From Acidimicrobiia bacterium (GTDB lineage: Bacteria; Actinomycetota; Acidimicrobiia; Spongiisociales; Spongiisociaceae): a stretch of DNA of 64,000 bases. Shown here in pieces: positions 2 to 17,005 of the stretch. The position numbers and the translations under genes are program-made. The DNA lies in NCBI GenBank assembly GCA_041576165.1, contig JBFGLM010000002.1:96001-160000 (forward strand). Reading direction: 5' to 3'. The notes under the pieces were generated by a model. That model did not search any database and was not told where the DNA came from. It was given only the letters and a program-made list of their open reading frames with translations. How positions within the stretch are numbered: the stretch's first letter is position 1; each line of letters opens with the position of its first letter.

Positions 2-337
2 ACCGGTCTCCAATCCATGCATCCGGGGGGTGACTTCCTTCGGTGGCTCAACGTGCCGACCGGCATCGGAAGCCGCTACTACGCCCTCGCCGGCAATTTC
101 GAGCCGGCGGACCGGGGGTGGGCGAACTGGGCCAAGAACCACCTCATGGACGCAATATTCCAAGGTAACAATGATCTTGTCGTACCGACCAAGGGTGTCT
201 TTGCCGCCAACGGATCCACCCAGTTCCCGGTGGACCAGCGACTGGAGTTCGGTGCCGACGCCGGTATCAACCACAGCACCTTCTTCGCAGACCAGATCGT
301 CCAGGACAGACTGCTGTCGTGGCTCGGGTCGGGCTAG
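2..337 (+). CDS. C-terminal fragment of an alpha/beta-hydrolase (lipase/esterase-like) protein, 5'-truncated by the window edge
   Basis: Frame is open from base 2 (TGLQSMHPGGDFLRWLN...). YYALAG, NDLVVP (candidate catalytic Asp) and INHSTFF (candidate catalytic His) fit the C-terminal half of small lipase-like folds. Confidence 0.6.
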   Translation, partial: TGLQSMHPGGDFLRWLNVPTGIGSRYYALAGNFEPADRGWANWAKNHLMDAIFQGNNDLVVPTKGVFAANGSTQFPVDQRLEFGADAGINHSTFFADQIVQDRLLSWLGSG

Positions 338-432
338 CGCGGCCTGGTTTTCAACCGTCCGGCATCGGACGGTCGAGATGCGTAGGGTCGGGACGGGACT
401 GGGGGTAGAAGTCGCACGTGGGACAAGGTCGG

Positions 433-3400
433 ATGGTGGCGAGCGGCGATCCACAAACATATGAACGCCCGGTCGCAAGGCCGGTGGCCGGCCGTCGTAC
501 GTTCGCCCTGTGGCTCATCGTCGCGGCTGCCCTTCTCGTCATAGCGGCAACGCTGGCGGCACTGCCGATAGCTCATGGACTGGAGGAACACTGCACCGGC
601 GATATCGTCGTCATGATCGATGCGCCGCTGCGGGCCGGTCCGCTCGATTGGTCGTTCAGCACCGAGGTTGTCGACCTCTCGGGTGACCCGATCCCCCCCG
701 GCACCTACGACGTCAGCCTGGTGACTTCCGACCCAGGGCACGCGCAGCCGGGGGACGTGAGCCAGCCGGCCGAAATCTGGTACGTCGAGCTGCTCGATGC
801 CGATACGAGTCCGATCTACACCTCCGAGTGGACGACCGACCTGGCCGATACCGCTACCGAGCGGATTGATGCCGTCCAGCCCCAGGCGGTTCTCGAGTCC
901 GCCGCCATCACGCTGGTCGCGCGCCACGCCATCGAGGAGATCGAGCGCGACGGGAACGGCAACATCGTGGCCAGCGGCATCAACTCGCTCACCGCGGTGT
1001 GCGCCATCTTCAACTCGGTCTCCATGCCTGTTCTGCCCCTGGAGGTTGGCATCGCAGCCGAGGTGGATCCCGGATCAGTGACGGTCGGCGCCGCCTCCCC
1101 CGCGACCTTCCAGCTTTCGATCAGCAATATCGGCCAGGCTCCAGCCGGCGAGCTGGTGATCGATCAGCCCTTGTGCGGAGACGTCACGGGTCAAACGCTC
1201 GCTCCTGGCGGCGTGGTGACGGTGTCATGCCAGGTCGACGTGTCTCACGGCGGGGTGCTCGATTTGAGAGTCACGGGCGTGAGCGACGGCCGGGCGGTCG
1301 CCGGCGAGACGATGCTGGCGGTGCTCGTCTCAGAGCTCATGATCGAGCCCGAGGCACCGCTGGTTCAGGGGACCCAGGGCGGGTCAGCCACCATTGAGGG
1401 GGTCATCCGCGACAGTGGAACAGTGGCGCTGGCCGAGGTCACGCCCGCGGTCACCGGGCTGCCCGCCGGGGTCACTGCCTCCTGCGGCGCGGCCCCCGAC
1501 CTGGCCCCAGATCAAGAATCCAGCTTCACCTGTTCGCTCGCCGGTGTCGCCGCTGGTGGATCGGCGTTCGACGTTGCCGTCGGTGTGACCGCGGTGAGCG
1601 CCAACCCGGCCCGGGTGGCGGCGGCCGATACCGCCACTGTGACCGTCGTGCCGTGGGAGTCGCAGCCGGCGCTCACGATCGAGATCACACCGGAGACGAT
1701 CACGGTGACCGAGGGGGATACGGTGCAGTACACCGTCGTCGTGGGAGCCGCCGGTATCAATGTGCCTATCGACGTGATGGTTGATACTCCGGCCGACCAA
1801 TGCAGCCGCCAGATTCCGGCCGGCGCCGCCTTCCCCGATGTCCTGACGTGTGAGGTCGTGGCGACCAACACAACCACGATCGATGCGACGGCAACGGCCG
1901 ACACCGGAGGCGCCCAGCCACTCACGGCCACCGATGTATCGACCTTGATCGTCGAGGGCCTGGTCGACATCGAGCTGGACGTCTCGCTAGACGAGCAAAG
2001 GATCGACGTGGGAGACACGGTCGAAATGAGGGTGCTGGTGCGGAACCTCGGCCCGGCTAAGTCCGGGAAGGTGACGGTTGAGATTGATCTGCCCTCAACG
2101 ATCGGCACCGTGAGGTGCTCGGGCCCGCCCGCCGACACATTTGTTTGCTCACGCTGGGTTATCGAAGATGGTCTCGAGAAGGATGACCAGGCGGTTGCCT
2201 CCTACATCCTGCGCGGCGCGGCAGCCGGCTCCGACCCGATAGTTGCCGAAGTCGTTGAAATCGAGGGTGCCCGCGATACCGACTCGGAGCCAGACGACCA
2301 GACCGGCGACGACCACGACTCTGAGGCCCTGATCGTCGAGCGGCCGCCGAATCGCATCATCCCTCGGGGCACCATCAGCGGCTGTGTCTTTCTCGACGAC
2401 GACGAAGACGGCGAACTCGACACCGGCGAAGAGCTGCTCGACGGTGTCCGGGTGTTTTCGGGCTCCAGCAGCGACTTGACCGCCGGCTCGGGGTATTCGT
2501 TCCGGATAGAGGCCGGCACCTACCGGGTGGCGGTCGATGTGGACACCCTGCCGGGTCTCTTCGACTTCTCGACTCCCGCGACCCGCCTTGTCACGGTCCG
2601 GGCCAACCGAACAACGTCCGACATCTGCTTCGGCGTCGTGCCGACCGGCGTCTACACCTTCACCCTTACCGCCGATCCGGCAGAGATCCAGATCGATTCC
2701 ACGGCGGCCGTGAGCGTGCTCGTCGACGGCCCGGACCGGCCCGACGTCCCGGTCATCTTCGATCCGCTGCCCGGCGGCTTGGAGCTGGTCGGTCCCCGCC
2801 GGGTCGACGTGACTGTGGGCGAGCCCTTCGACGTCGAGATCAAAGGGGAACAAAACGGTCGATATTTGATATCAGCGCGAGCCCAAACCGACGGCGTCAC
2901 GGGACCAGTGGCAACGACTGCGCTGATTGTCATGCTTCCCCCCTCCAAGATAGGGGGCACGGTATTCGTGGATTCCGACGGGGACGGCGTGCTGGACCCC
3001 GACGAGGAGCCGCCGGCAGACGCATCGACCCTGCGGGTCCTGGCGATCAAACGCGACAAGATCCAGCCGGCCGCCGCTCAATCTGCGGGCTCGGGGCTCG
3101 GGTACTACGGCTCGGGGGTCCTTCAGTCCCGGATATCCCTGTTCCAGGGCGCGTCGCTGCTCGGCTTCGTCTTCTTCGTGGATGAAAACGGCCGCTACGT
3201 TACAGAGACGCTCACGCCGGGCAAGTACCAGCTGGAGCTGATCGATTCGGCCGACCGGCGCATCGAGTCGCTGCCCGAGGGCCGCCAGATCGCCCTGCCC
3301 CGCGACGCCGGCAATCACGACCTGGACTTTGCAGTGACCGCCCAGCTCGACGCCGACCGGATCAGCGGCCGGGTGTGGATCGACGAGAACGGTAACGGCG

Positions 3401-5769
3401 AGATAGATGACGGCGAACGGGGATGGGGCGGTGCCATGGTCACGATCTCCGACCTCGATGGGAACACCGAACCACAGATCGTGACGACCGAGCTGGTCGC
3501 GGGCGATGAGGCCCGATATGACGCGGTCGTCGAGCCGGGCCGCTATCGGGTCAGCATCGCCGATCAGGGGGGCGCCGAGCTGGGCTTCTCGACCGCGCAT
3601 CCGATCGACGTCGAGGTGCCCGGTGGCATCCCGTTCGACCAGGTGGACTTCGGCGTCACCGATGGGCCATTCGGCGTCATCAGTGGCGGCGTCTGGTGCG
3701 ATGTCAATGACAACGGAACGCTTGATCAAAACGAGACCAGCTTCCCCGGCGTTGTGACCTTGGGCGGGCCGGTCGGGCAGCGCACGGCCACTGTCCAGGC
3801 GGACGGGCACTACGAGTTCTCCGGGTTGAGCAAGGGCGATTACACGGTGGCCTACACCCAGCAGCGTTCCGAAGCCGACCCGATCGAAAAAAACGAGACG
3901 GTCACGCTCGGGCTGGCAGAGGTGAGAAACGACGTTGATCTCAAGCCCTGTCCCAAAGGTTCCATCGGCGGAATCATCTACGTCGACGAAAACAACAGCG
4001 GCTCCTTTGAAGAAGGAGCCGACCGCCCGGCGCGTGGGATCAGCGTCCAGTTGTGGCATTCAGGTGCTCCGATCTCGGAGCGAGCGGCCGTTGAGGTCGA
4101 GGATGTCCGAGAGGGGGAAGCCGCCCGATACCTGTTCCAGCATCTCGCCCCGGGCCTCTACAGGGTCGTCGTCATCGGTGCTGTTGATGACGCGACACTC
4201 GCCATCGGCCGGCGCACGCCCGTGACGATCGAGCCCGGTAGCACCGAGCGCGTCGATCTCGACGTGCGTTTCACCACACAGTCGGGCATCCCGCTCTGGG
4301 TGTGGGTCCTCCTCGGCGGCGCGGCGGCCTTGGCGATCCTGTACTACCTGACGCGGCACGTGCCGGTGCCCATGCCTGTCCCCATCCCAGGGTCGCCGCC
4401 TACCGACCGGGGGCCACCGACCCCGACCCCGTATCCGGGTGTCCGGCCCTTCGGACCGGCCGAGGCGCCGGTATTCGCCGGACGAGAACGCGAGATCAGG
4501 GCGCTCGAAGCTCTGACGTATCCCAACAGGATCCTGCTGCTGTACGGCCCGGCCGGTGCCGGCAAGACCTCGCTGCTGCAAGCTGGGTACATCCCTGCGC
4601 TCGACCCAACGGAATTCGAGGTCCTGCCCACTGCCCGCTTCCAGCTTGGACCGCCGCGCCCGCCCACGGATGGCGCCAACGTCTTCTCATATGCGGTGCT
4701 CTCTTACCTGTCTCAGTCCGCCGTGCCGGCTGCCGCCACCCTGGCGGATTACCTAGATCAGCGCCCGCCGATTGTTGGGGAATTCGACGTCGAGGTGGCG
4801 CGGGTGATCGTGATCGACGAGTTCCAGGAGATGTTCCGGCTCTATCCGGAGTACTGGCACCAGCGTCAATCCTTCTTCGATCAGATCGGCGAGGCGCTGG
4901 AATCCGATCCGCTGGTCCGGTTCGTGCTGTGCATCGACGAGCATGAGATGGGGGAGCTGGAGCCATTCATCGAGCAGTTCGGGCCACACGTCGTCTCGGA
5001 ATACCGAATCGAGCCGCTCCGGCCGGAGCAAGCGCTGGCGGCGATCTCCCATCCTGCGGAGCTGGACGGACGGCGTATGTCCGAGGCGGCGGCCGCGGCG
5101 TTGGTGGACGAGGCTCGCACCGTGCGTGCCGAGCATGACGGGCACCGGATCGAGGTTGTGTACGAGCATGCCGACCCGATGGCACTCCAGCTCAGCGCCG
5201 AAGCTACCTGGCGCCACGCTGACGGTGACGAGATTGGGCCCGACGACATCGTCGGGTGGGAGGATGGCGATGCTGCGATCGAGGCGTTCTACGAATCGAT
5301 CGTGGCCGCGGTGGCTCCCCAGGCCGGTGAAGCCGCGTTGAGAGAGTGGTGTGAGCGGGTTCTGATCGACCCGACCGGCAACCGGGCGGTGCTGGTCCCG
5401 GGTCGCGGCGGCGCCCGCCAGATGCCGGCCGACGTCATCGAATCGTTGACCATGCACACCTTGCTGGTCGGGTCGGTACGCGGAGACGTCCGCTGGCTGG
5501 AGCTGGCGCATGATCGTCTCGTGCCTGCCATCGAGCTCAGCAACCGGAAATGGAGGGAACAAACGCTGATCGAGGCATCGGCCGGCCTGCTCTCGGCCGC
5601 GGCCCGGATCTGGGAACGGCATGGCCGGGATGAAGACGGCCTCCTCGTGGACGGTGCGTTGACCGACGCCCGTCTGTGGGCGGCGGCGTATCCCACGCGG
5701 GTGGGTCCGCTCGAGCGTGAATACCTGGAGGCCAGCATCGCCGCCAGCGAGCGACCCGTCGGCAGCTGA
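433..5769 (+). CDS. Receptor-like membrane protein: signal peptide, Ig-like/DUF11 domains, 5 SdrD-B-like repeats, TM helix, Pro-rich linker, nSTAND1 NTPase
   Basis: Long ORF (start GTG 418 or ATG 433) with an RR-hydrophobic N-terminus. Five G-x-V/I-(F/W/Y)-x-D-x-D/N-x-D/N/S-G repeats at ~2368, 2944, 3355, 3673, 3958. TM helix GIPLWVWVLLGGAAALAILYYL at ~4285-4350. nSTAND1-type motifs PYPGVRPF..FAGRERE, Walker A GPAGAGKTSLLQAG, Walker B VIVIDEFQE, and ELAHDRL. Confidence 0.88.
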   Translation: MVASGDPQTYERPVARPVAGRRTFALWLIVAAALLVIAATLAALPIAHGLEEHCTGDIVVMIDAPLRAGPLDWSFSTEVVDLSGDPIPPGTYDVSLVTSDPGHAQPGDVSQPAEIWYVELLDADTSPIYTSEWTTDLADTATERIDAVQPQAVLESAAITLVARHAIEEIERDGNGNIVASGINSLTAVCAIFNSVSMPVLPLEVGIAAEVDPGSVTVGAASPATFQLSISNIGQAPAGELVIDQPLCGDVTGQTLAPGGVVTVSCQVDVSHGGVLDLRVTGVSDGRAVAGETMLAVLVSELMIEPEAPLVQGTQGGSATIEGVIRDSGTVALAEVTPAVTGLPAGVTASCGAAPDLAPDQESSFTCSLAGVAAGGSAFDVAVGVTAVSANPARVAAADTATVTVVPWESQPALTIEITPETITVTEGDTVQYTVVVGAAGINVPIDVMVDTPADQCSRQIPAGAAFPDVLTCEVVATNTTTIDATATADTGGAQPLTATDVSTLIVEGLVDIELDVSLDEQRIDVGDTVEMRVLVRNLGPAKSGKVTVEIDLPSTIGTVRCSGPPADTFVCSRWVIEDGLEKDDQAVASYILRGAAAGSDPIVAEVVEIEGARDTDSEPDDQTGDDHDSEALIVERPPNRIIPRGTISGCVFLDDDEDGELDTGEELLDGVRVFSGSSSDLTAGSGYSFRIEAGTYRVAVDVDTLPGLFDFSTPATRLVTVRANRTTSDICFGVVPTGVYTFTLTADPAEIQIDSTAAVSVLVDGPDRPDVPVIFDPLPGGLELVGPRRVDVTVGEPFDVEIKGEQNGRYLISARAQTDGVTGPVATTALIVMLPPSKIGGTVFVDSDGDGVLDPDEEPPADASTLRVLAIKRDKIQPAAAQSAGSGLGYYGSGVLQSRISLFQGASLLGFVFFVDENGRYVTETLTPGKYQLELIDSADRRIESLPEGRQIALPRDAGNHDLDFAVTAQLDADRISGRVWIDENGNGEIDDGERGWGGAMVTISDLDGNTEPQIVTTELVAGDEARYDAVVEPGRYRVSIADQGGAELGFSTAHPIDVEVPGGIPFDQVDFGVTDGPFGVISGGVWCDVNDNGTLDQNETSFPGVVTLGGPVGQRTATVQADGHYEFSGLSKGDYTVAYTQQRSEADPIEKNETVTLGLAEVRNDVDLKPCPKGSIGGIIYVDENNSGSFEEGADRPARGISVQLWHSGAPISERAAVEVEDVREGEAARYLFQHLAPGLYRVVVIGAVDDATLAIGRRTPVTIEPGSTERVDLDVRFTTQSGIPLWVWVLLGGAAALAILYYLTRHVPVPMPVPIPGSPPTDRGPPTPTPYPGVRPFGPAEAPVFAGREREIRALEALTYPNRILLLYGPAGAGKTSLLQAGYIPALDPTEFEVLPTARFQLGPPRPPTDGANVFSYAVLSYLSQSAVPAAATLADYLDQRPPIVGEFDVEVARVIVIDEFQEMFRLYPEYWHQRQSFFDQIGEALESDPLVRFVLCIDEHEMGELEPFIEQFGPHVVSEYRIEPLRPEQALAAISHPAELDGRRMSEAAAAALVDEARTVRAEHDGHRIEVVYEHADPMALQLSAEATWRHADGDEIGPDDIVGWEDGDAAIEAFYESIVAAVAPQAGEAALREWCERVLIDPTGNRAVLVPGRGGARQMPADVIESLTMHTLLVGSVRGDVRWLELAHDRLVPAIELSNRKWREQTLIEASAGLLSAAARIWERHGRDEDGLLVDGALTDARLWAAAYPTRVGPLEREYLEASIAASERPVGS

Positions 5770-5785
5770 GCTCGATCGCTGCTGG

Positions 5786-7210
5786 CTAACTGATGGCGGC
5801 GGTCTCTCCCCACCGCCGGCGCAGCTCGTCGGTGAACTCCTCGGGCTTGCCGGGATACAGCGATAGGTTCCACTGCTGGTTGAAGTAGCCCTTGACGTAG
5901 TCGATCATGCCCGGGTCGGCGTCCGGGCTGACCTGCACCGCCACATTGAGGAGCTGGTTGCTGACTCCGTGCCGGAAGCGGGGCAGGATGGCGTGAAGGA
6001 GCGCCCGGAATCCCAGGTCGTCCCAGTCGAAACCCAGGAACAGCAAGGCCCCTTTGCCAATCGCGTGCAGGATCGCCTGGGGCAACGTCGTCTGATCGCT
6101 GGTGACCCCTACTGCGAACGACAGGTAGTCGTCCTCGGACAGGATCATCGACTCGGCGTGGTGGTCGCCGCTGGTTCCGTATAGGTGATAGACGACCGGT
6201 TCGGTGGCTTTCAACTCGAACGAGGGGTCGTGGAGCCTGGAGGATTGTTCCGGCATGATCGCCTCGGACGGCCTATAGCGGTCGGACATCGGTATCCGCG
6301 GGTTGGGCTGCTCCTGCAGCGCCGCTTCGAGATACGCGTCCTGGTTGGTTGTCAGGTATACGGCAAGCGGCAGATCCGCCAGAATCCGGTACGGCGCAGT
6401 CTTGTCCGCCGCGTCGGAGATCTTCAGCTTCTCCAGCCGCTCGGACAAGGCATAGTTGGCCATCAGCTGGTCCTGAGAGTTCTTCACCTTCACGAACTGA
6501 ACCACCCGGGCAAACTCGCGCGCCCACCGGCGGGCCAACCTCTCCTGCGCGTCGGGCTCCTCGCTCGCCGCCAACTCGATCAGGTCGGCCGGTCGGTGAT
6601 AGCCGAACTTGTCCGCCCAGTCGGCGGCCAGGTCTGCCTTGATTCTGGTTGCGTCGGGTGACAAGCCGCCACCGAGGAAGGGCACCAACTTGCCGCGCTT
6701 GATATTGGCGATCAGCGCATCCCAGTCCTGGTCGGAGAAGCCGGTATCGGTGCTGCGCCACTCGATTGACCGGCTCTTGAACGTCTCCTCGATCTCTTCG
6801 ATCAGGGGCTCGAGGCTGGCCGCCTTCTCCTCGGTCAATTGGAAGGCTGGTTTCATCGCCACCTCGAGCAGCGCTTCCGGAAGCTCGTCCTGCGTGGGGC
6901 GCTCGACATCTGGCGCCATCAGCAACAGGATCCGGGCCGGGCCTCGTAGTGCCTGATGTAGCAGGTCGGCGATCGGATCGCCGTCTGTGTGCAGGGCTAC
7001 CGACCCGGTCTCGTCTTCGGCCAGCCATTGATCCCCGACGAGAACGACCAGCACCTCGGTATCGCTGAGCCGGTCGGCGCTGTCGGTATCCGGCGACGGC
7101 TGATCCAGAGCCACGTTGTGATCGCCGAAGTGCCGCGCCAGTAGCTCCCGGGTCGTTGAAGCAAGACCGGCCGTATCGGACCTGCGGTAACTGATCAGGA
7201 TCGTGGCCAC
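5786..7210 (-). CDS. TIR domain + SIR2-like (SIR2_2) domain protein
   Basis: GTG start at 7210 with GGAGG 5 nt upstream. N-terminal ILISYRRSDT..LARHFG..NV..D is TIR-like. C-terminal half has LVPFLGGGLS, YLTTNQD, VYHLYG and LLFLGF (SIR2_2 motif series). Confidence 0.85.
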   Translation of the reverse strand: MATILISYRRSDTAGLASTTRELLARHFGDHNVALDQPSPDTDSADRLSDTEVLVVLVGDQWLAEDETGSVALHTDGDPIADLLHQALRGPARILLLMAPDVERPTQDELPEALLEVAMKPAFQLTEEKAASLEPLIEEIEETFKSRSIEWRSTDTGFSDQDWDALIANIKRGKLVPFLGGGLSPDATRIKADLAADWADKFGYHRPADLIELAASEEPDAQERLARRWAREFARVVQFVKVKNSQDQLMANYALSERLEKLKISDAADKTAPYRILADLPLAVYLTTNQDAYLEAALQEQPNPRIPMSDRYRPSEAIMPEQSSRLHDPSFELKATEPVVYHLYGTSGDHHAESMILSEDDYLSFAVGVTSDQTTLPQAILHAIGKGALLFLGFDWDDLGFRALLHAILPRFRHGVSNQLLNVAVQVSPDADPGMIDYVKGYFNQQWNLSLYPGKPEEFTDELRRRWGETAAIS

Positions 7211-7288
7211 ATCGTCCTCCCGTTCGGTTTCCACCCTACGCATTCACCCGTGTCCGTGGCCGGCACCGCTTGGGTAGGGTGCTAGTCC

Positions 7289-8944
7289 ATGGATCTCGCG
7301 CAACTGCTGACCGAACTCGGTCAAGCGCTCGGCGCCCATGACGAGACGGCGGTGGCAGACATCGTTGACCTGGTCGTTGCGCACATCCTCGGGTCGGATG
7401 AGCCGTTCTCGCCCGAGCTGGCCACCGAGATGCTGGGCACGCTTTTCCACAAGCGCAGTTTCCAGTCGGTAGCACGGCTGGGCGATGCCCTGTTGCAGGT
7501 CGGCGTAGACGAGCCGAAGGTGCGGGGTTACTACGCAGGCGCTTTGGCTGAGGAAGGCTTCTTGACGCCGGCCGAATCGATGGCTGAGAGTCTCAAGTCC
7601 AATTCGGTGGAAGATCCAGCCGAGCGGGCGTGGGCGCAGGAGTTCCTGGGCGGGGTCCGATCCCGGCTGTACGTTCAGGCGACGGGCATGCGGGGGGCGC
7701 GCCGTGAGCGCTTCCTCGACGGAGCGCTATCGGAGTATTGGGGCGCGTACGACGTCGCCCCGGGCGACCACCCCTCTCACGGCATCCAGGTCGTCGGGTT
7801 GCTCAGGCGGGCGGAGGCCGACGGTGTTGACCCGGGCCATTACGGAGACACGACCGAGATCGCCCGCAGGGTGGCAGAGACCGTGCGTGATTCACTCCGA
7901 CCGTCGGACCTGGTCACAGCCGTCAAGGCGGCCGTCACGCTGGGCGACGGCCACGCCGCGCTGGAAGCCGCCACCCGGCTGATCAGCCATGAGCAGGCCG
8001 AGGCGTACGAGCTGAGTGCGCTGCTGTGGGATCTCACGAACATCTGGGGCGTCGACGAAGCACGCGACGACAACAAGCAGCTGATCGGGTTGATCAAGAC
8101 CGGGCTGATGCAGCGGCCCGACTTCAGTCGAGTCGAGCTGACGCCGTCGGAGGCGAGAGCCGCCGCCGAGGGCCTCGACCGGGTCGGAGCCGGCGCGGTA
8201 CCGAGCGGAGCGGCGGATATTCAGCAGGACATCCCGGGCCTGGAACGGATCCTCGGCAAGGAAGGCGTGCGGACCCGGCGGTGGATCCTCAACATGCTCG
8301 ATCGGAGCCGGGCCGTCGCTCGAATAGAGGACCACAGCGAGAAAGCGATGGGCACCGGCTTCCTAGTGCCCGGTCAGGCTCTGCACGATTCGCTCGGTGA
8401 GCAGATGGTGCTCGTCACCAACAACCACGTCATTGCGTCCCGGCCCGAACGCAACCAACTGAAGCCTCTCGAAGCCGTCGCCCGCTTCCAGGCGCTTGAG
8501 GAAGAGGGCGAACGGGCCGGCGTCGACGTAGGCGACCCGATCTTCGAGTCGCCCGTGGAGAAGCTAGACGTGTCCGTTCTCGAGTGCGGGGCCCCCGAGG
8601 GAATGACGCCTTACCGGATCGCCGAGGATCTGCCGGATCACGACGCCATCGATGAAACGGCCAAGGTCTACGTCATCGGGCACCCGGGGGGCCGTACGCA
8701 GTCATTCTCGCTCGACGACAATCTACTGATCGACTACGACGACGAGGTGCTTCACTACCGGTCGCCGACCGAACCGGGGAGTTCAGGGAGTCCGCTGTTC
8801 GATCAGCAGTGGAACCTGATCGGCCTGCATAGTCGCGGCAACGAGAACTTGCCCAAGCTCAGAGGCCAGCCGGGCCGGCGTGAAGCCAACATGGGTTTTC
8901 GCATCACTGCAGTGAGAGCGGCGATGGAAATCTCGCTGCGGTAG
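7289..8944 (+). CDS. Trypsin-like serine protease with N-terminal helical (TPR/DUF4071-like) region
   Basis: GTGFLV, TNNHV (His), KLDVSVL (Asp), YVIGHPGG and TEPGSSGSPLF..W.LIGLH (Ser). The first ~300 aa have an amphipathic helical pattern and no signal peptide. Confidence 0.9.
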   Translation: MDLAQLLTELGQALGAHDETAVADIVDLVVAHILGSDEPFSPELATEMLGTLFHKRSFQSVARLGDALLQVGVDEPKVRGYYAGALAEEGFLTPAESMAESLKSNSVEDPAERAWAQEFLGGVRSRLYVQATGMRGARRERFLDGALSEYWGAYDVAPGDHPSHGIQVVGLLRRAEADGVDPGHYGDTTEIARRVAETVRDSLRPSDLVTAVKAAVTLGDGHAALEAATRLISHEQAEAYELSALLWDLTNIWGVDEARDDNKQLIGLIKTGLMQRPDFSRVELTPSEARAAAEGLDRVGAGAVPSGAADIQQDIPGLERILGKEGVRTRRWILNMLDRSRAVARIEDHSEKAMGTGFLVPGQALHDSLGEQMVLVTNNHVIASRPERNQLKPLEAVARFQALEEEGERAGVDVGDPIFESPVEKLDVSVLECGAPEGMTPYRIAEDLPDHDAIDETAKVYVIGHPGGRTQSFSLDDNLLIDYDDEVLHYRSPTEPGSSGSPLFDQQWNLIGLHSRGNENLPKLRGQPGRREANMGFRITAVRAAMEISLR

Positions 8945-8992
8945 CGCTCGCTGTGCCCGCCCGAACCGAGTTCAGGGCGGGGCCGTCGCGGC

Positions 8993-9616
8993 TCAGCGCT
9001 CGGTGGGCGGGAACGCCGTCTGCTTCGGCGGAGCCCACCTGACCCGCTCTTGCCACGGATCGGCGGGCACGAGCTCAAATACCTCGGCGTGGAGCGGCTT
9101 GTCGCCGTTGAGGGTGTGCAGCGAACGGCCGGTGAGGCCGAGGCGGGCGGCCTGAATGGGATCCTGATGAGAGACGACGGCGACTGGACCGTCGATCTGC
9201 GCAGACCAGCGGCCGATCGCGGACGCCATGCGGTGCGCCAGAGCGGCCAGCGACTCGGCGGACCACGGCAGGTCCCACGGGTGCCGCAGATAGGCGTCGA
9301 GCTCGCCGGGATAATGGTCGTCGAGCTCCTCCCATACCAGGCCTTTCCAGCGCTGGGCCATACCCCACTCGGTGAGCTCATCATCGATCCTGACTTCGAG
9401 GCCGTGCGGTCGAGCGATTGCTGCGGCGGTTTCACGCGCCCGCCGCAGGGGAGACGCCACCACGGCCGCGAGCCGGCGGGGAGCCAGGTACTCGCCGGCC
9501 TCGTCGGCCTGGCGACGGCCGAGATCACTCAGCCCGAATCCCGGAAGGTCGGCATATACGATGTGGTCGGGGTTGTGCACCTCGCCGTGGCGCACGAGAA
9601 ATACGGGGTGTGACAC
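8993..9616 (-). CDS. Histidine phosphatase (phosphoglycerate mutase-like) family protein
   Basis: LVRHGE, SPLRRARETA and VVSHQD motifs. GTG at 9616 is preceded by TACACT-N7. Confidence 0.9.
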   Translation of the reverse strand: MSHPVFLVRHGEVHNPDHIVYADLPGFGLSDLGRRQADEAGEYLAPRRLAAVVASPLRRARETAAAIARPHGLEVRIDDELTEWGMAQRWKGLVWEELDDHYPGELDAYLRHPWDLPWSAESLAALAHRMASAIGRWSAQIDGPVAVVSHQDPIQAARLGLTGRSLHTLNGDKPLHAEVFELVPADPWQERVRWAPPKQTAFPPTER

Positions 9617-9644
9617 GAGTTCGAGTGTAAGGGTCCCGGGAGCA

Positions 9645-10853
9645 GTGACAGAAACCGAGCGGCGGTTCGACGAGCCGATTCTCCACGTCGACATGGATGC
9701 CTTCTATGTAGAGGTGGAACGGCTGCGCGATCCGTCCCTGGTGGGGGCCGCGGTCGTGGTCGGCGGTGCCGGGCCCCGAGGCGTCGTGGCGTCCGCCTCC
9801 TATGAGGCGAGGGCATTCGGGATCCGATCAGCAATGGCCATGGGCGAGGCTCGGCGGCGGTGCCCGGAACTGGTGGTCGTGGCGCCCGATCACGGGCGTT
9901 ACGGCGAGGTTTCCGAGGCGGTGTTCGAGATCTTTCGCAGCTACACCCCCGTGGTCGAAGGGTTGAGCGTCGATGAGGCGTTCCTCGACATCCGGGGCCT
10001 GCGCCTGCATTACGGGTCGCCGCTGGAGGTGGCGGCGGCGATCAGAACCCAGATCCGTCATGAACTTGGCTTGCCCGCCTCGGTCGGCATCGCGGCCACC
10101 AAATTCGTAGCCAAGCTGGCGTCGGCCCACGCCAAGCCGGACGGAATCAGACACGTTGCGGCCGGAGCGGAGGCCGCATTCCTCCACCCGCTGGCGGTGC
10201 AGGAGCTATGGGGGGTGGGCGCGGCTACCCACGCGGCGCTCGAACAGCTCGGGGTGGAAACGATCGGAGATCTGGCTGCAATCCCTGCGCCGACGCTCCA
10301 TCGAAGGCTGGGAACGGCGGTGGGGGGCCAGCTGGCCGCGCTGAGTCATGGGATCGATCCCCGCACGGTGGAACCCGATCTCGCAGCCAAGTCCCTGTCC
10401 GTCGAACACACCTATCCCGTCGATATCAGCGGCTACGAAGTCTTGGAGTCCGAAACGCTCCGGCATGCTGAGCGCCTGGGTAGCCGGCTCAGGAGGGCCG
10501 GGCTGAGCGGCCGTACCGTCGGACTCAAGCTGAGATACGCCGACTTCACGACAGTGACCCGCAGCGAGACGCTGGCGTCGCCGACCGACGTCAGTCGCGA
10601 CATCTATCAGGCGGCCAAGCGCCTGTTGGCCGGGCTTGACGTTGGAGACCGGCCGGTGCGCCTTCTAGGTGTGGGGATGAGCGGGCTGAGCGAAGCGGGC
10701 GGTATCCGTCAGCTGGCCGTCGACCGTCCTGCCAAATGGGACGACGTTGCTGATGCGGTGGAGAGCGTTCGACGGCGCTACGGTAACGATGCAGTGGCTC
10801 CGGCGCGGCTGCGGGACACCCCCGACGAAGGGGCCTCCGAGCGACCGGATTGA
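9645..10853 (+). CDS. dinB: DNA polymerase IV
   Basis: ILHVDMDAFY, ASYEAR, SVDEAF and AKPDG Y-family motifs. Start set at GTG 9645. Confidence 0.96.
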   Translation: MTETERRFDEPILHVDMDAFYVEVERLRDPSLVGAAVVVGGAGPRGVVASASYEARAFGIRSAMAMGEARRRCPELVVVAPDHGRYGEVSEAVFEIFRSYTPVVEGLSVDEAFLDIRGLRLHYGSPLEVAAAIRTQIRHELGLPASVGIAATKFVAKLASAHAKPDGIRHVAAGAEAAFLHPLAVQELWGVGAATHAALEQLGVETIGDLAAIPAPTLHRRLGTAVGGQLAALSHGIDPRTVEPDLAAKSLSVEHTYPVDISGYEVLESETLRHAERLGSRLRRAGLSGRTVGLKLRYADFTTVTRSETLASPTDVSRDIYQAAKRLLAGLDVGDRPVRLLGVGMSGLSEAGGIRQLAVDRPAKWDDVADAVESVRRRYGNDAVAPARLRDTPDEGASERPD

Positions 10854-10901
10854 GCGGTCTCAACCGGAGATTGAGCCTTCAGCCTTGTCTCGGTCGCTGC
10901 G

Positions 10902-10907
10902 TATAAT
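10902..10907 (+). promoter_or_regulatory. -10 element (TATAAT) upstream of the DUF3040 gene
   Basis: Perfect TATAAT in GC-rich intergenic DNA, 36 nt before ATG 10944. Confidence 0.55.
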
Positions 10908-10943
10908 GGCTCAGCGAGTTGGCCGACGGGCCCAGGAGACCGG

Positions 10944-11285
10944 ATGCCATTGGACGAACGAGAACAGCGGATCCTCGACGAAATCGAGCGGCAATTCCGG
11001 GAGGAAGATCCCGAGCTGGTAGAAGCGGTCAACACGATGCCGCTGGCGCGGTTCGCCAAGGGCGGCATCAAGCTCTCGATTCTCGGTGTCATAGTCGGCC
11101 TGGTGCTGATGCTGGCCACCTTCTCGATCAACCCTTTTCCGGCCCTTGTCGGTTTCGTGATCATGGTCTATTCGGTCACACGGCTCGTTTCGGCTCTCGG
11201 TGATGGCTCCCGGAGTCGTTCCAGCGGCGGCGGCGCCGGAAAAGTTCGAAATCGATTCAGAAGTCTCTGGCCTTTCGGGCGCTGA
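10944..11285 (+). CDS. DUF3040 family membrane protein
   Basis: MPLDEREQRILDEIERQF.EEDP N-terminus followed by two TM helices. Confidence 0.9.
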   Translation: MPLDEREQRILDEIERQFREEDPELVEAVNTMPLARFAKGGIKLSILGVIVGLVLMLATFSINPFPALVGFVIMVYSVTRLVSALGDGSRSRSSGGGAGKVRNRFRSLWPFGR

Positions 11286-11304
11286 CCCGGTTCTGCGGGC
11301 TAGA

Positions 11305-11324
11305 GTGGCCGGACTTCCGGCCAC
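11305..11324. terminator. GC-rich hairpin, possible terminator
   Basis: GTGGCCGG-ACTT-CCGGCCAC perfect 8-bp stem 20 nt after the DUF3040 stop; no U-tract. Confidence 0.35.
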
Positions 11325-11433
11325 AGCTGAGCGATCACTGATCGAGTCACTTCCCCAATTGGCTCGCTGAGGCCTGGCGGAGCAAGCGGAGGATTGGCGA
11401 CACTTCGGGTGTCGTGCGGGTCGTGGGAGAGTG

Positions 11434-11928
11434 ATGGCTGAGGGGTTCACTGCGCAGCAGGCGTCCCGATTGACGAACTGCACGCAGCACCAGTTGCGCT
11501 ATTGGGACAACGTAGGTTTGGTTCAGCCCTCCGTGCAGGGGACCGGTGGGCGTCCCGGGGTCCGGCGCATGTACTCGTTCCGGGATCTCGTCGCCCTTCG
11601 GGTGGTGCGGGCGTTGCTCGACAATGGCATGTCGGTCCAGCGGGTCAGGCGAGCATGGTCGTACCTGCGGCGTAATGGAGATTTCGACAAGCACCTGTCG
11701 GAGGTCCGTCTCGTGTCCGACGGCCGCACGATTTTCCACGTGAACGCCGACGAGGACGAGATCCTCGACGCACTACGGGCGGGGCAGCTTGCCTTCTTCG
11801 GGACGATCGATCACGTTACGAGGTCGGTCGAGGAGGATATCACCCGGTTTGAGCTCGACCGGGAGCAGTTCCTCGAGGTTCTGCGGCGAGTGGAGGACGA
11901 CGTGCTGGCCGAGGTCGTCGAGGGCTGA
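11434..11928 (+). CDS. MerR-family HTH regulator (resembles the actinobacterial Rv1830/McdR type)
   Basis: QLRYWD..GLVQPS, RRMYSFRDLVALRVVRALLD.G.S.Q.VR and LVSDG.TI motifs. Confidence 0.88.
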   Translation: MAEGFTAQQASRLTNCTQHQLRYWDNVGLVQPSVQGTGGRPGVRRMYSFRDLVALRVVRALLDNGMSVQRVRRAWSYLRRNGDFDKHLSEVRLVSDGRTIFHVNADEDEILDALRAGQLAFFGTIDHVTRSVEEDITRFELDREQFLEVLRRVEDDVLAEVVEG

Positions 11929-11966
11929 ACGGACCCCGGTGCGGACTAGGTGCTCGAGGGGCTGGC

Positions 11967-14327
11967 TCAGTCGCCGTGCGACCGGAGCGAGCGCAGATTG
12001 AACCAGCGCAGAAGGCGGCGGGTCTTCGAGTATCGCTCTCGCAGCCCGGTCTCGGTTCGGAGGTACGACGCTTCGGCCCACTGGAGACGGGGTGCCGAGA
12101 CCTCGGCTTCCGGGCCGTACATCACCTTCGTATATGTGAGCGCCAGGGGCTCCATCGCCGGGTCGGTCGACGCAGCAACCTCGGTCGGGGTAGCCGACCG
12201 AGGGACGGGATCGCCGAGATCAGCCAGCTGGTCGGTGATCTCGTACCAGGCCGCGCTGATGTCGCCCCGATTGAGCCGCCGGAGGCGTCGCCGCCGGCGC
12301 CACCACTTATAGGCGGGGATGGCACTGAGCAGGGCGGCCGCGATGGGCAATACGAGCAGTTGCCATGGGAACGGCCGGCGTACGGCGTCCGGGTCGAATC
12401 CCGGTAGGACAATGTCGGGCGACGAGGGGGCCTCGGCGATCTGGTTCAACAGCTCCAGCGCCGGGCCGTCGATCGCGTTGTTGACTGCGGTCTCGGTGGC
12501 GTCGCTGCCATCGTCCTGGAGCGGCACGTAGTTGCGCGGGTCAAAGCCGAGGGAGTTGACGAGGCCCGGATTGTCGGCCTGCCGCCGGGGAGTCGGATCG
12601 AACTGCACCCATCCCTGCTCCGGGAACCAGACTTCGACCCATGAATGTGCATCGTTTTGGCGCACGGTCACGGTTCCGTTCGCGTCGATGTCACCGGGGG
12701 CGAAGCCGAGGATGACCCGGCTGGGAATGCCGAGAGTTCGCGCCATCACGGCCATGGCGGTGGCGAACTGTTCGCAGTAGCCGATTCGGTAGTTGATGCT
12801 CTCGGGATCGGTCAGCCACGATTCGAGGTCCTGCGCGGAGTGGCCCGGGTCGATCGTGACGTCGTAGGTGAAGTTGTCCGACCTCAGGAAGGCTTCCATG
12901 AACAGTGCCCGCTCGAAGTCGGTGGCGGCCGCCGCCGTGAGCTCCCGGGCAAACCCTCCCACGGTGCTTTGTGCGATCGACGGCGGGAGCTCCAGGAAGA
13001 CGTCCAGATTCTCCGGTTCGGGACGGGGCGCCACGCCTGCCGCCTGGCCCTCGAACACGCCTTGCTGGCGGGCCTCCTCGAAGATCCCCGAAAGTGAGCC
13101 TTCCCGTGAGGCCAGAACGTCGAAGTTGGGGGCCGGTATCTGCGACGTCACCTGGTAGTTGAGGCCTTCAAACGTGAGCGCGTCAAAGCGCACGGCCCCG
13201 TCCTCGCGGATTCGGAAGCTTTCGGTCAAGATCTCAGACTGGGACGCAAGTGCGACCGGGGTGTACGCGGCGGGGAGGTAGTTCTGGCGCAGGGAAGCGA
13301 TCGTGATGTCCTGGCGAACGGTGGTGGTAGGCCCGATGAAGACCTGATCCGGGTTCTCCCACGGAGTTCCCGGCTCGGGCCTGCGAATCTGGGAACGGCG
13401 CGGGAACCAGTTCGTCCCATCGAAGCTTTCCAGCGCGATCAGCTTCCAGTAGACGTCGCCCGGGTCGATGTCGCCCTCAATTCGGGCTGTGAAGACCGGA
13501 GTGTCCGACTGCGAGACCAGGCTCTGCTGCACCCCCACAAAGAGGTTGTAGCTGACTCCACCGAAGATCCCATTGCCGAAGCCGGTGCGGGCACGCCAGT
13601 TGAGCACGCCCGATTCGGGAACTCGGTCGGCCAGTATCCCCGAGACCAGCACCGTGATGATCAGGAGGCCGACGACGTAGGCGCCGGGTCGACCGGCGGA
13701 CAGCGCAGAGACGTATCGGTTTTCACGATCTCGCAGCCGACCGGTCCCGGCCGTCCGCTCGTCATAGGCAACGGCCAGCAAGCTCGCGAGGAGAAGCCCC
13801 AGGAAAGCGAACGTCCAGCCGAGCCCGGGTGGGACTCGATCCATCGTGGCGAGCTGGAGGTAGAGGAGGAGGCCGGGCACGATCGCGATGATCGGCCGGC
13901 CGGTGGTGAGGGCCCACACCACGACAGCTCCGATGACCCAGAAGAGCCAGGTGAGGAGCAGGATTATCCCGGCCACCGGCACCACAGGAGCTGTCCCGAA
14001 CCGGATCAGCTCGAAGCCAAAGGCCAGCTCCCGTACCGTCTCGCCGACGGTGGCCGGGGTCGGGATCAGGCCGAACAGCGCCGTGTCGGGGGCGGCGATC
14101 CGGATCGTAGCGAGCACGAGGCCGATCCCGTTGGCGATGAGTAAACCGGACAGGCTGGCGCGATAGGACAGGGCCACCCAGGTGATGACTCCACCGAGCA
14201 AGAGAGCGGCGATCAGAACCAGCTGCCAGGGCGGGCCCTGAGAGGCCGTCCGCAGCAACCGCTCCATTCGTAGCAGCGCCAGGATCAGCCCCGCCGCGGT
14301 GGCGAACCAGGTCAGACGGTTGACCAT
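11967..14327 (-). CDS. Transglutaminase-like membrane protein (DUF3488 + TGc)
   Basis: Multiple N-terminal TM helices, GYCEQFA (Cys), HSWVEV (His) and WVQFDPTP (Asp). ATG 14327 overlaps the end of the DUF58 gene. Confidence 0.93.
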   Translation of the reverse strand: MVNRLTWFATAAGLILALLRMERLLRTASQGPPWQLVLIAALLLGGVITWVALSYRASLSGLLIANGIGLVLATIRIAAPDTALFGLIPTPATVGETVRELAFGFELIRFGTAPVVPVAGIILLLTWLFWVIGAVVVWALTTGRPIIAIVPGLLLYLQLATMDRVPPGLGWTFAFLGLLLASLLAVAYDERTAGTGRLRDRENRYVSALSAGRPGAYVVGLLIITVLVSGILADRVPESGVLNWRARTGFGNGIFGGVSYNLFVGVQQSLVSQSDTPVFTARIEGDIDPGDVYWKLIALESFDGTNWFPRRSQIRRPEPGTPWENPDQVFIGPTTTVRQDITIASLRQNYLPAAYTPVALASQSEILTESFRIREDGAVRFDALTFEGLNYQVTSQIPAPNFDVLASREGSLSGIFEEARQQGVFEGQAAGVAPRPEPENLDVFLELPPSIAQSTVGGFARELTAAAATDFERALFMEAFLRSDNFTYDVTIDPGHSAQDLESWLTDPESINYRIGYCEQFATAMAVMARTLGIPSRVILGFAPGDIDANGTVTVRQNDAHSWVEVWFPEQGWVQFDPTPRRQADNPGLVNSLGFDPRNYVPLQDDGSDATETAVNNAIDGPALELLNQIAEAPSSPDIVLPGFDPDAVRRPFPWQLLVLPIAAALLSAIPAYKWWRRRRRLRRLNRGDISAAWYEITDQLADLGDPVPRSATPTEVAASTDPAMEPLALTYTKVMYGPEAEVSAPRLQWAEASYLRTETGLRERYSKTRRLLRWFNLRSLRSHGD

Positions 14328-15487
14328 GTGGACTGCACCCCTTTCAACCACGCCGGCGCCCACGGGTCGTGTGGCCCGACGGTGATCGTGGTCGCGCCGC
14401 CGCGCTGGAATTGCACCAGCGACTCGGGTGGCTCATCGGTGACCGACAGCAGAACCGTCCGCCCGAAGTCGCGTGAGAGCAGCCGCTGAGCCTCCAGCAG
14501 CTCGTTGTCGCCCACCCCCGTGATCAGAACCAGTGCCCCGCCACGGGCGCCCCGCCGCAGATGCATTGCCGCAGCCCGGATGTCGAGATCTTCCTCGAGC
14601 TGGACCCTCGCCAGCGCCTCCATGGCCGAAGCGTAGGGCGACCCGGCGTTGGAGCTGACCGGTGCTCCACCGGTCCAAAGGTCGGCCGCGAAGCCCTCCC
14701 GGTACAAGTGGCGGATCACCGAGGCGGCGCCGCGAACGGCCCGTTCGAAAGCGGCCGGAGACTCGTAGGCGGATTCTCGCGGGTCGAGCAAGACCAGCGC
14801 TCTCGCCTGCCACGGCGTCTCGAGCTGGCGGATCATCAGCCGGTCTCGCTTCGCCGAGCTCGGCCAGTGAACCCGGCGCAGGTCATCGCCGATCTGGTAC
14901 TCCCTGAGTGTAAAGAAATCCTCGCCGCCCCGGTGGCTGAATTCCGGTTTGGCCGCATGGACCGACGGATCGAGGCCGCGTACTATCGGGAACCCTTCGA
15001 GGTCCTCCACCGAGGGATACACAATGAGCTGGTCCCCCTCGCCGACCGAGACCGAAACCGACGCCAGTCCGAGCGGATCTGAGGTGGTGATAGTTGCTGG
15101 CCCCACCTCGTAGATGCCCCGCGGTCGGCATAAGATCTGATACGAGGCGGAAGCCGAGGTGCCGCGGGCCAGCAGACCGAGGGCGAAGCGAGCGGTGCCC
15201 AGGCCCGACACGGTGTCCTCCACCGTCACGTTGCGCATTGCGAACCGTCCCCGGTTGGCAACGGCGGTAGACACCGACGCCTGATCTCCTTCGTGCACCA
15301 GGTTGGGGGTGAGGCGTCTCGTGACCGCAGCGACCGGTATCGTCACCTTGACGAGGATGAGCGCCAGTCCCACGCCGGCGATCAACAGCACACCGGAACC
15401 GAGCAGTTCGATTTCCCCCAACGCCACGAACAGAATCAGGAGTGCGATACCCGCCCCGAGCGCGGCCCAGCCGCGGTCGGTCAGCAT
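14312..15487 (-). CDS. DUF58 domain protein
   Basis: RGIY..GP, LREYQIGDDLRRVHWPSSAK..LMIRQ motifs; lies directly downstream of the MoxR ATPase. Confidence 0.93.
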   Translation of the reverse strand: MLTDRGWAALGAGIALLILFVALGEIELLGSGVLLIAGVGLALILVKVTIPVAAVTRRLTPNLVHEGDQASVSTAVANRGRFAMRNVTVEDTVSGLGTARFALGLLARGTSASASYQILCRPRGIYEVGPATITTSDPLGLASVSVSVGEGDQLIVYPSVEDLEGFPIVRGLDPSVHAAKPEFSHRGGEDFFTLREYQIGDDLRRVHWPSSAKRDRLMIRQLETPWQARALVLLDPRESAYESPAAFERAVRGAASVIRHLYREGFAADLWTGGAPVSSNAGSPYASAMEALARVQLEEDLDIRAAAMHLRRGARGGALVLITGVGDNELLEAQRLLSRDFGRTVLLSVTDEPPESLVQFQRGGATTITVGPHDPWAPAWLKGVQSTWSTV

Positions 15488-16465: not shown

Positions 16466-16614
16466 CTGTTGCACCTCACGTCGAACCTCGCAGACATTAC
16501 TAGGGGGCCAGGATTGTGGCACCGTGAGCTTTGGGGCAGGCGCCGGGGCGAGCCCGAATGCCCGAGCACCAGGTACCAGCGCCCGGATCTCTTTCAGGTA
16601 CCCTCTCGCGAGTC

Positions 16615-16887
16615 ATGGATACCTCGCGCGGGCATCGAGCGAGTGGTGCCGGGCTGGTGCGAGCACTCGCCCGTCGCCCGACACTCGCCGTTGAGGCGCT
16701 TCGCACGGTGCTGGCAGTGGCGCCCCGGGCGTGGTGGCGGGCCGTCCCCTTCCTTCCGATACCCGACGCCGACTACTGGGCTTGGCGGGCAGAAACCGCC
16801 TACGGCGACCGAGGTACCGCCCCGGATATCGACGACATCCTGGATTACCTGGCGTGGCGCCGGCGGCAGCGGTCGATCCGGAGATGA
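16615..16887 (+). CDS. Small hypothetical protein
   Basis: Protein-like ORF with WWR..PFLP.PD.DY..WR.ETAYG and DYL.W, which looks like a conserved-type motif. Confidence 0.65.
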   Translation: MDTSRGHRASGAGLVRALARRPTLAVEALRTVLAVAPRAWWRAVPFLPIPDADYWAWRAETAYGDRGTAPDIDDILDYLAWRRRQRSIRR

Positions 16888-16928
16888 TGCGGCATACGGT
16901 GGCGCGAGCGGGCTGGGCCGCGCGACCG

Positions 16929-16957
16929 TTGACACAGGGCGCTATTTCCCGTTTAGT
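16929..16957 (+). promoter_or_regulatory. Putative sigma70-type promoter upstream of the HNH gene
   Basis: TTGACA-N17-TTTAGT; a TAATCT hexamer near 16972 is an alternative -10. Confidence 0.4.
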
Positions 16958-17005
16958 CGGATCGGCGCTGGTAATCTGGCGCCGCTGGTACTCAAGGACG
17001 CGGCT

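Follow-up and report, generated by a model that had tools for sequence, protein, structure and literature searches.

Can a bacterial STAND NTPase take its trigger from outside the cell and set off effectors that are coded in separate genes beside it? The question is raised by a locus at the left end of a 64,000-nt stretch of DNA from an Acidimicrobiia bacterium (NCBI GenBank assembly GCA_041576165.1, contig JBFGLM010000002.1; G000:C2:96001-160000 in our numbering), referred to here as the window, which belongs to a 5.1 Mb genome (G000) in 161 contigs with 96.5% completeness and 7.5% contamination. Three genes spanning 8.5 kb lie together there, coding for a receptor-like STAND protein (window positions 433 to 5769, plus strand), a TIR-SIR2 protein (5786 to 7210, minus strand) and a protease composed of a helical domain and a trypsin domain (7289 to 8944, plus strand). 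On balance, we consider it probable that these genes constitute a conflict module, serving defence or programmed death, inside a five-gene accessory insertion at a defence-cargo hotspot, and this rare trio may sense danger outside the cell. To our knowledge, characterised prokaryotic STAND/NLR-like defence proteins such as Avs and the bacterial NACHT families sense their triggers inside the cell.

Hydropathy and Pfam analysis show a predicted receptor anatomy for the STAND protein, consisting of a signal peptide or anchor, an Ig-like stalk, a single transmembrane helix and an nSTAND1 NTPase with intact Walker motifs. The gene codes for 1778 aa from the ATG at position 433, which is also the length of the database copy of the protein (P0158), or for 1783 aa from an alternative GTG at position 418. 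The N-terminal hydrophobic segment (positions 484 to 585, residues 23-56), which by its hydropathy is either a signal peptide or an anchor, is kept in P0159 and P0160 and is followed by an ectodomain of about 1230 aa (586 to 4281), for which Pfam gives a string of Ig-like beta-sandwich domains (three of the SdrD_B type, matched at 1.1e-28, along with DUF11, CARDB and others). From a hydropathy scan, the transmembrane helix was placed at positions 4282 to 4353 (residues 1289-1312); a proline-rich juxtamembrane linker follows directly, and the cytoplasmic nSTAND1 module occupies positions 4429 to 5637 (residues 1338-1740), with PF20703 matching at 2.3e-28 over profile positions 1-379 of 379. From the two hydrophobic segments, both of which are conserved in two STAND orthologues, follows the predicted topology, with the Ig-like residues outside and the NTPase inside. 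The Walker A motif reads GPAGAGKT (K1383) and the Walker B motif VIVIDEF, and the pattern G-x-G-K-x-S as well as the Walker B aspartate are invariant in all 21 aligned nSTAND1 sequences. The protein ends 43 residues past the nSTAND1 match, and Pfam gave no C-terminal sensor domain. Neither an effector domain of its own nor cytoplasmic sensor repeats were found; of the 1783 residues, 1338-1740 are taken up by the match to the nSTAND1 profile. A first-pass annotation of the window had already described the STAND protein as lacking its own effector domain, and this description holds.

The ectodomain-bearing form of this NTPase is very rare. Within the 150 best matches among 1.84 billion representative proteins, an ectodomain stands N-terminal to the NTPase in four only, namely the window protein itself (P0158), P0159, P0160 and the more distant P0279, in which a Big_9/cadherin/DUF11/SdrD_B ectodomain precedes the NTPase. 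In 143 of the 150 the NTPase starts within the first 50 residues, leaving no room for a fused N-terminal effector, and in relatives the NTPase is followed by TPR or WD40 repeats, the relatives so noted being at most 36% identical to the window protein. The ectodomain diverges faster than the cytoplasmic part; its membrane-distal domain is conserved, and a search of a protein atlas with this domain returned no usable match. AlphaFold2 models residues 57-520 as an all-beta structure, with a predicted local distance difference test (pLDDT) value of 73.

The TIR-SIR2 gene lies 16 bp beyond the end of the STAND gene and converges on it. Its open reading frame (ORF) extends to an ATG at position 7243 (485 aa, the frame followed by the residue numbers given here), while the start was set at the GTG at position 7210 (474 aa) because of the homologues and of a GGGAGG Shine-Dalgarno sequence conserved in the alignment with the metagenome contig L012. 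A NADase-type SIR2_2 domain covers positions 5804 to 6736 on the minus strand (about residues 170-480; PF13289, 1.1e-13), its motifs TTNQ (N300) and VVYHLYG (H353) are invariant in the four orthologues aligned, and a profile search of the PDB gave the antiphage proteins ThsA, KomC and DSR2 as its nearest solved relatives. Positions 6764 to 7210 (residues 12-160) code for a domain of predicted TIR fold. No Pfam TIR model matches the protein; the assignment is based on similarity to TIR_2 proteins by BLAST and HMMER and on an AlphaFold2 model (pLDDT of about 80), for which the top Foldseek matches are the TIR domains of SARM1 and BtpA (TMt 0.63-0.70, E 6e-4). A search of 5.8 billion proteins yielded only three full-length homologues, and CHAT-SIR2 proteins account for 20 of the 32 matches listed, the window's own protein aside. 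Among 41 genomes, a full-length match exists in G000 only; G034 has a match to the SIR2 part (28% identity) and one to the TIR part only, and the 24 genomes of the same family gave no match.

The closest paralogues of this TIR domain are found in a further set of proteins of the same genome, on contigs C131, C15, C135, C69 and C29 (L010, L008, L004, L009 and L006), and on a metagenome contig (L018:1225-3045). These proteins consist of an N-terminal TIR_2 domain, one predicted transmembrane helix at about residues 170-230 and a C-terminal domain predicted to lie outside, which is of the Big_9/cadherin, Septum_form, TPR or lectin-like type or of no identified family, so that their topology resembles that of Toll-like receptors.

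Divergent from the TIR-SIR2 gene and separated from it by 78 bp, the third gene codes for a protease of 551 aa (P0004). Its Trypsin_2 domain lies at positions 8351 to 8827 (Pfam, 1.6e-18), and the catalytic triad H380, D427 and S499 is invariant in ten of ten aligned sequences. The N-terminal helical domain (7289 to 8293, residues 1-335) is, judged from homologue alignment, a divergent TPR-S domain (PF20308). TPR-S stays below the Pfam threshold in P0004 itself; the protein aligns end to end with a TPR-S-bearing family (coverage 91-100%, identity 32-38%), whose members have TPR-S at residues 65-175 or so, and the orthologue P0040 matches TPR-S at 6.5e-5. This family comprises 330 matches of about 540 aa each, with N-terminal TPR-S and C-terminal Trypsin_2. 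A search of 300 further genomes of the phylum, at E<=1e-20, found the protease in none. TPR-S is combined with other effectors as well, in a TPR-S-trypsin-TIR_2 fusion (P0133) and in a fusion with ParA (P0044). TPR-S is said to originate from work of Burroughs et al. in 2015 and reportedly was proposed there as a nucleotide sensor. The second TPR-S protein of the genome (G000:C116:190-1890, L026) has a DUF676 serine-esterase in place of trypsin, an arrangement which suggests that TPR-S may be a swappable sensor or adaptor module.

Do these three genes belong together? The order convergent, then divergent, recurs on L012, a metagenome contig of 7 kb, where the STAND ectodomain is 43% identical, its cytoplasmic part 51%, TIR-SIR2 41-42% and the protease 46-60%. 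This contig breaks off within the STAND gene, and a gene for an M15 peptidase follows the protease, unlike in the window. Co-occurrence of these families elsewhere, which the first-pass annotation had named as a check on its proposal, is thus found for the trio of STAND, TIR-SIR2 and trypsin, and we take this trio, judging from its gene content and order, to be the core of the locus. Furthermore, the best homologues of all three core proteins come from contigs sized 12392 and 16776, and identity ranks agree between the two sets (59/53/57% vs 51/41/49%). The 16776 set belongs to the L012 organism, and the trio is probably present on the second contig, too (P0008, P0039 and P0159 in the 12392 set), a link made by the equal contig sizes only. 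In a wider circle, the SIR2 clade is habitually coded beside nSTAND1 genes: an nSTAND1 gene is adjacent in seven of the eight SIR2-bearing loci examined (L003, L011-L016); L017, the remaining one, is a contig of 1189 bp that stops shortly behind SIR2. In the six of these loci other than L012 (L003, L011, L013-L016), nSTAND1 follows directly downstream on the same strand. One of them, L011 from the cable bacterium Candidatus Electronema aureum, presents a distant dyad with about 750 bp between the SIR2 and nSTAND1 genes.

In those six more distant SIR2-nSTAND1 loci, a tblastn search found no trypsin gene in the DNA present. This result, together with the wide and modular occurrence of TPR-S (the 330 matches, the fusions with ParA and TIR and the DUF676-TPR-S protein on C116), speaks for an island of independent systems, in which a STAND and TIR-SIR2 pair, a self-contained TPR-S-trypsin sensor-effector and a unit of two further genes described below, CHAT and hydrolase, would be neighbours because the site collects cargo. 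Unrelated cargo at the same chromosomal site in three relatives and a promoter-like box of its own before each core gene point in the same direction. However, in L012 the protease keeps its divergent place beside TIR-SIR2 despite 40-54% protein divergence, and the mirror arrangement of the promoter boxes, with its spacing, is kept as well. The three closest protease homologues moreover come from contigs sized 12392, 16776 and 1544, the first two sizes being those of the STAND and TIR-SIR2 homologues. We regard a gathering of independent systems as unlikely and favour a three-gene module.

The promoter-like boxes deserve a closer look. A scan for 7-mers revealed the sequence GTAGGGT in three copies in the window, both strands considered, and each copy lies upstream of one core gene in the orientation of that gene: at positions 382 to 388 (plus strand) as a -10-like element before the STAND gene, at 7233 to 7239 (minus strand) 22 nt ahead of the start codon of TIR-SIR2, kept at the same place in L012, and at 7274 to 7280 (plus strand) 8 nt before the trypsin ATG, compared to 7 nt in L012. 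The 78-bp divergent spacer thereby contains an inverted repeat with the GTAGGGT core at the same positions in L012. No such box precedes the CHAT gene. We considered this inverted repeat as an operator specific to the system and discarded that idea, as a crude coding mask places 63 of the 103 copies in the genome in non-coding or 5' regions. GTAGGGT is best read as a general -10-like box of this genome, for which we assume TAnnnT as the consensus. With the box only 8 nt before the ATG, the protease mRNA is perhaps leaderless. The M15 peptidase gene of L012 (Peptidase_M15_4, D-Ala-D-Ala carboxypeptidase-like; L012:2-574), which has no counterpart in the window, has a GTAGGGT box of its own 53 nt upstream. 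Past the stop codon of the hydrolase gene and before the STAND gene, a GC-rich hairpin, CCGTCCG-GCAT-CGGACGG, can be read from the sequence at positions 353 to 370 (plus strand), which could act as terminator or attenuator, though no T-tail follows it; a scan for consensus promoters and terminators gave nothing useful and did not call this hairpin.

To the left of the trio, two more genes complete the insertion. A gene for a DUF7379 alpha/beta-hydrolase of 496 aa (G000:C2:94847-96337, plus strand; Pfam 1.2e-56) with a candidate nucleophile CHSRG at S298 reaches into the window with its last 111 codons (positions 2 to 337, plus strand), and its start is overlapped by 4 bp by an upstream gene for an 861-aa protein with HEAT-like repeats and a caspase-like CHAT domain (C2:92265-94850; CHAT 1.3e-14), which displays the motifs HLAVHG (716-721) and LNAC (758-761). 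Both genes begin left of the window, the hydrolase gene 1.15 kb before its first position with the HEAT-CHAT gene ahead of it, which bears out the suspicion of the first-pass annotation that the locus may extend in this direction. Its domain calls for the four genes visible in the window (hydrolase, ectodomain-TM-nSTAND1 with TM as transmembrane helix, TIR-SIR2 and helical/trypsin) were right according to Pfam, predicted fold and hydropathy, and the ORF listing gives the same gaps of 95, 16 and 78 bp between hydrolase and STAND, STAND and TIR-SIR2, and TIR-SIR2 and trypsin genes, respectively. Since TIR-SIR2 is coded on the strand opposite to the flanking STAND and trypsin genes, the block is not a single operon; the first-pass annotation had mentioned neither this change of strand nor the HEAT-CHAT gene.

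We next ask whether the hydrolase and CHAT genes are part of the same system, as the first-pass annotation had supposed for the hydrolase by counting a lipase-like gene into one locus. Five genes inserted as one block between conserved flanks, a hydrolase gene on the strand of the STAND gene with 95 bp between them, and CHAT as the usual fusion partner of the SIR2 clade, to which a caspase-like protease would fit, are all consistent with a single system of five genes, with a STAND receptor that would govern three arms of effectors. Against this stand the hairpin and the separate promoter-like box before the STAND gene, with no box before CHAT, and the pairing of CHAT with alpha/beta-hydrolases that is known from other systems: in the sections of Kaur et al. 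available to us (2020, eLife, PMC7159879), a caspase-superfamily domain never occurs in the systems described without an alpha/beta-hydrolase gene next to it. In G000 itself, a paralogue exists in which a single ORF, at least 1529 aa long and cut by the contig end, fuses DUF7379 and CHAT (G000:C97:4808-9396, L020), and no STAND gene lies on this 9.4-kb contig; directly upstream of the fusion, a gene for a 351-aa reprolysin-like metallopeptidase with a PPC domain is located. Because of the published pairing, the C97 fusion and the hairpin before the STAND gene, the CHAT and hydrolase genes most likely form a separate, neighbouring and separately transcribed peptidase dyad, so that the lipase-like gene is better placed as one half of this pair. 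A five-gene system appears distinctly unlikely to us, and within the three-gene module that we favour, the pair may serve as a further effector arm that is not needed to define it.

The site of insertion gives the locus its genomic context. On the right, a His_Phos_1 gene (8993 to 9694) follows the trypsin gene, and then a dinB-like polymerase gene, the latter conserved and syntenic in relatives, in line with the earlier remark that housekeeping genes begin directly after the locus; left of the HEAT-CHAT gene lie a membrane protein gene and ORFs resembling a fab operon (fabD/H/G/F-type, judged by eye), from which the fabF product served as search query. The fabF-dinB interval was surveyed in the 12 of 24 relatives in which both genes lie on one contig within 20 kb, with G028, which is unpublished, and G007, which is not syntenic, left out. 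The gap measures 1.9-4.9 kb in nine of these, and G009 shows the bare state with fabF, one ORF, His_Phos and dinB; in G000 it amounts to 15.2 kb, widened by the whole five-gene block. In the remaining three relatives, the gap is likewise enlarged, to 6.2 kb in G008, 12.6 kb in G015 and 17.3 kb in G003. The cargo consists of a PIN_10 and HTH_66 pair along with a 675-aa protein without Pfam match in G008 (G008:C1:1892800-1901500, L023), of a 1730-aa Type ISP restriction-modification enzyme and a PIN gene in G015 (G015:C1:2012400-2027400, L022), and of a DUF499 ATPase, a 1215-aa SNF2 helicase, HNH and NUDIX in G003 (G003:C1:1414000-1433200, L021). The fabF-dinB interval is thus a variable defence-cargo hotspot in this bacterial family. 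At the insertion in G000, no tRNA, integrase, flanking direct repeat or GC shift was found, the GC content of the region profiled being about 65%. Contigs of the sequencing runs X1, X5, X6 and X7 gave only patchy coverage of the 19-kb region, and no RNA run containing the locus was listed. A joint from 1907 to 17175 on a metagenome contig, which would skip the whole insertion, was set aside, as one of its sides comprises 26 letters at 90% likeness. Three kb to the right of the island, a minus-strand cluster (window 11967-16522) of a transglutaminase-like membrane protein, a DUF58-like ORF and a MoxR-like AAA ATPase, assigned by eye, is taken for housekeeping and lies outside the finding.

The nature of the neighbouring cargo bears on whether the module is directed against invaders at all. 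A surface receptor for adhesion or contact, acting in the recognition of kin or non-self or in developmental cell death of a multicellular or aggregating lifestyle, could present an ectodomain of adhesin-type Ig, SdrD_B and DUF11 domains, with cadherin-like domains in P0279, that evolves faster than its NTPase. The several proteins of this genome with TIR, transmembrane helix and extracellular domain would suit such a lifestyle, and Kaur et al. (2020 and 2021) tie systems of this kind to multicellular bacteria, as far as the consulted parts of these papers go. Restriction and toxin-type cargo at the insertion site in relatives and the grouping of the SIR2 domain with antiphage NADases argue against it, and we deem a pure contact receptor of this type highly improbable compared to the conflict module.

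For this conflict module, we propose a model in which the ectodomain would act as sensor in place of the TPR or WD40 repeats of the closest relatives. An extracellular event, which could be a ligand, contact with a phage or a cell, or wall damage, would cause the NTPase to oligomerise at the membrane in an NTP-dependent manner, and the oligomer would switch on the separately coded TIR-SIR2 protein, causing depletion or processing of NAD+. This latter step is suggested by the pairing of the SIR2 clade with nSTAND1 genes and by the conserved catalytic Asn and His. The TPR-S-trypsin protease would constitute a second arm, activated either by recruitment or by a nucleotide made by the TIR domain and sensed by the helical domain, TPR-S being presumably a nucleotide sensor in this step; once activated, it would cleave targets in the cell. 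A cell stimulated in this way would stop growing or die. In its most specific form, a receptor-type NLR whose ectodomain reads phage adsorption, non-self contact or wall damage and thereby elicits NAD+ destruction and proteolysis across the membrane, this model is a tentative possibility that we would rather doubt than assert.

Several observations weigh against a module of this kind and against its proposed working. The trio is directly seen in only one other locus, L012, a contig that breaks off within the STAND gene, short of any CHAT or hydrolase gene that might travel with the trio. Foldseek searches with the model of residues 57-520 returned only generic tandem Ig-like proteins (adhesins, integrin legs and complement MG domains), and such strings of Ig domains point to no particular ligand. 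The SIR2 half of the AlphaFold2 model is poor, with pLDDT below 50. The acidic residue after the conserved Trp73, a position which we take to be the catalytic site of TIR domains, is E or D across the four TIR-SIR2 orthologues, rendering TIR activity of this protein uncertain. The protease family is large, its 330 matches being mostly about 35% identical, so that the protease could act alone. The GTAGGGT boxes indicate three separate promoters rather than a private regulon or specific co-regulation of the three genes. Finally, no shared adaptor of the EAD or Death-like type was matched by Pfam among the five proteins at E<=0.01-0.1, BLASTP of all five against each other gave nothing below E 0.037, and an hhalign comparison of A2 with the CHAT protein resulted in a probability of 6%. 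The proposal of the first-pass annotation that the STAND protein recruits TIR-SIR2 and protease in trans consequently gains no backing from a shared adaptor domain. Prediction of a complex between the cytoplasmic STAND part (A3) and TIR-SIR2 (A4) gave scores of 0.25 and 0.00, the mark being 0.32, and speaks neither for nor against such a complex.

If a receptor-type NLR were nevertheless realised here, it would represent outside-in signalling of immunity or death that unites the logic of Toll-like receptors (ectodomain, transmembrane helix, TIR) with that of NLRs. With its sole candidate sensor outside the membrane, it would imply that in bacteria, death machinery of the NLR type can also be armed at the cell surface, perhaps ahead of genome entry by an invader or in the absence of such entry. 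The TIR-SIR2 fusion and the TPR-S protease would be added to the partners that act in trans with nSTAND1 proteins. As the trio is small and has clear catalytic residues, the question is directly testable, and the fabF-dinB interval of this family is a place to seek further defence cargo.

How does this locus compare with known systems? A PADLOC scan matched no system to it. Partial matches concern ThsA and LmuA on the SIR2 part, with ThsA as the nearest model (2.9e-9, residues 244-419), and, weakly, RT-Protease_XI and PDC-S45 on the protease. The view of the first-pass annotation that no described system has this combination therefore holds as far as PADLOC is concerned; a STAND protein with effectors encoded in trans, however, is established for nSTAND1 systems. 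For these, Kaur et al. (2021, eLife, PMC8195603) describe, in the portion consulted, trans-encoded effectors in neighbouring genes, with trypsin and TIR among them, and an example in Thiohalocapsa is presented in the accessible part of a later report (PNAS 2024 / bioRxiv 10.1101/2023.09.22.558884). Our locus shares with the nSTAND1 systems of that 2021 paper the NTPase family and the unfused effectors in neighbouring genes. As far as the same excerpts go, the sensor of the described systems is a C-terminal FGE/C-lectin, TPR or WD40 domain and the effectors are coupled by shared EAD adaptors. Our locus departs from this in its candidate sensor, an N-terminal ectodomain predicted to lie across the membrane, in that no EAD could be found, and in its effectors, TIR-SIR2 and TPR-S-trypsin.

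With Avs5 (AVAST type 5; Nat Commun 2025, PMC11897194, and Mol Cell 2026, PMC12931631, both available in part), the locus has in common a STAND NTPase, a SIR2 NADase and the oligomerisation model. According to these texts, Avs5 is a single cytoplasmic polypeptide made up of SIR2, NOD and, at the C-terminus, a sensor, while in our case SIR2 is fused to TIR in a separate convergent gene and nSTAND1 is predicted to be anchored in the membrane. None of the Avs models of PADLOC matches the locus, and no solved STAND structure was found to be related by sequence. Thoeris, composed of ThsB (TIR) and ThsA (SIR2-SLOG), shares the TIR and SIR2 domains, and the SIR2 domain described here is close to ThsA models and structures; in contrast to the separate ThsB of Thoeris, TIR and SIR2 reside in one protein here, to which a STAND NTPase and a protease are added, and Pfam matched no SLOG or Macro sensor domain in the proteins of the locus. 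The CHAT gene with adjoining alpha/beta-hydrolase gene is shared with the MoxR-vWA ternary systems, as they appear in the part of Kaur et al. (2020, PMC7159879) consulted. Compared to these, the hydrolase is of the DUF7379 type. Pfam matched no VMAP or vWA component in the five proteins, and the MoxR- and DUF58-like ORFs at 14312-16522, assigned by eye, lie beyond three other genes.

Receptor-like NTPases with transmembrane segments and an extracellular domain (cadherin, TPR or SPOR) and with effector genes alongside have been described as PCTM ParA (bioRxiv 10.64898/2026.10.19.760177) and GAP1-N2 systems (Kaur et al. 2020), again judging from the accessible parts of both sources. There, a ParA or GAP1 GTPase carries a C-terminal transmembrane part and ectodomain; here, the ectodomain is N-terminal and the NTPase is of the STAND type. 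The literature searched, which was available in part, describes no ectodomain-bearing prokaryotic STAND protein, although the supplementary neighbourhood tables of Kaur et al. (2020 and 2021) may list such forms, and it contains no report that combines TPR-S either with both trypsin and STAND or with both SLOG and TIR. By analogy, the locus is nearest in its putative working to the nSTAND1 systems and to Avs5. STAND proteins with effectors in trans are already known; the novelty lies in an nSTAND1 form that spans the membrane and bears an ectodomain, together with this set of effectors.

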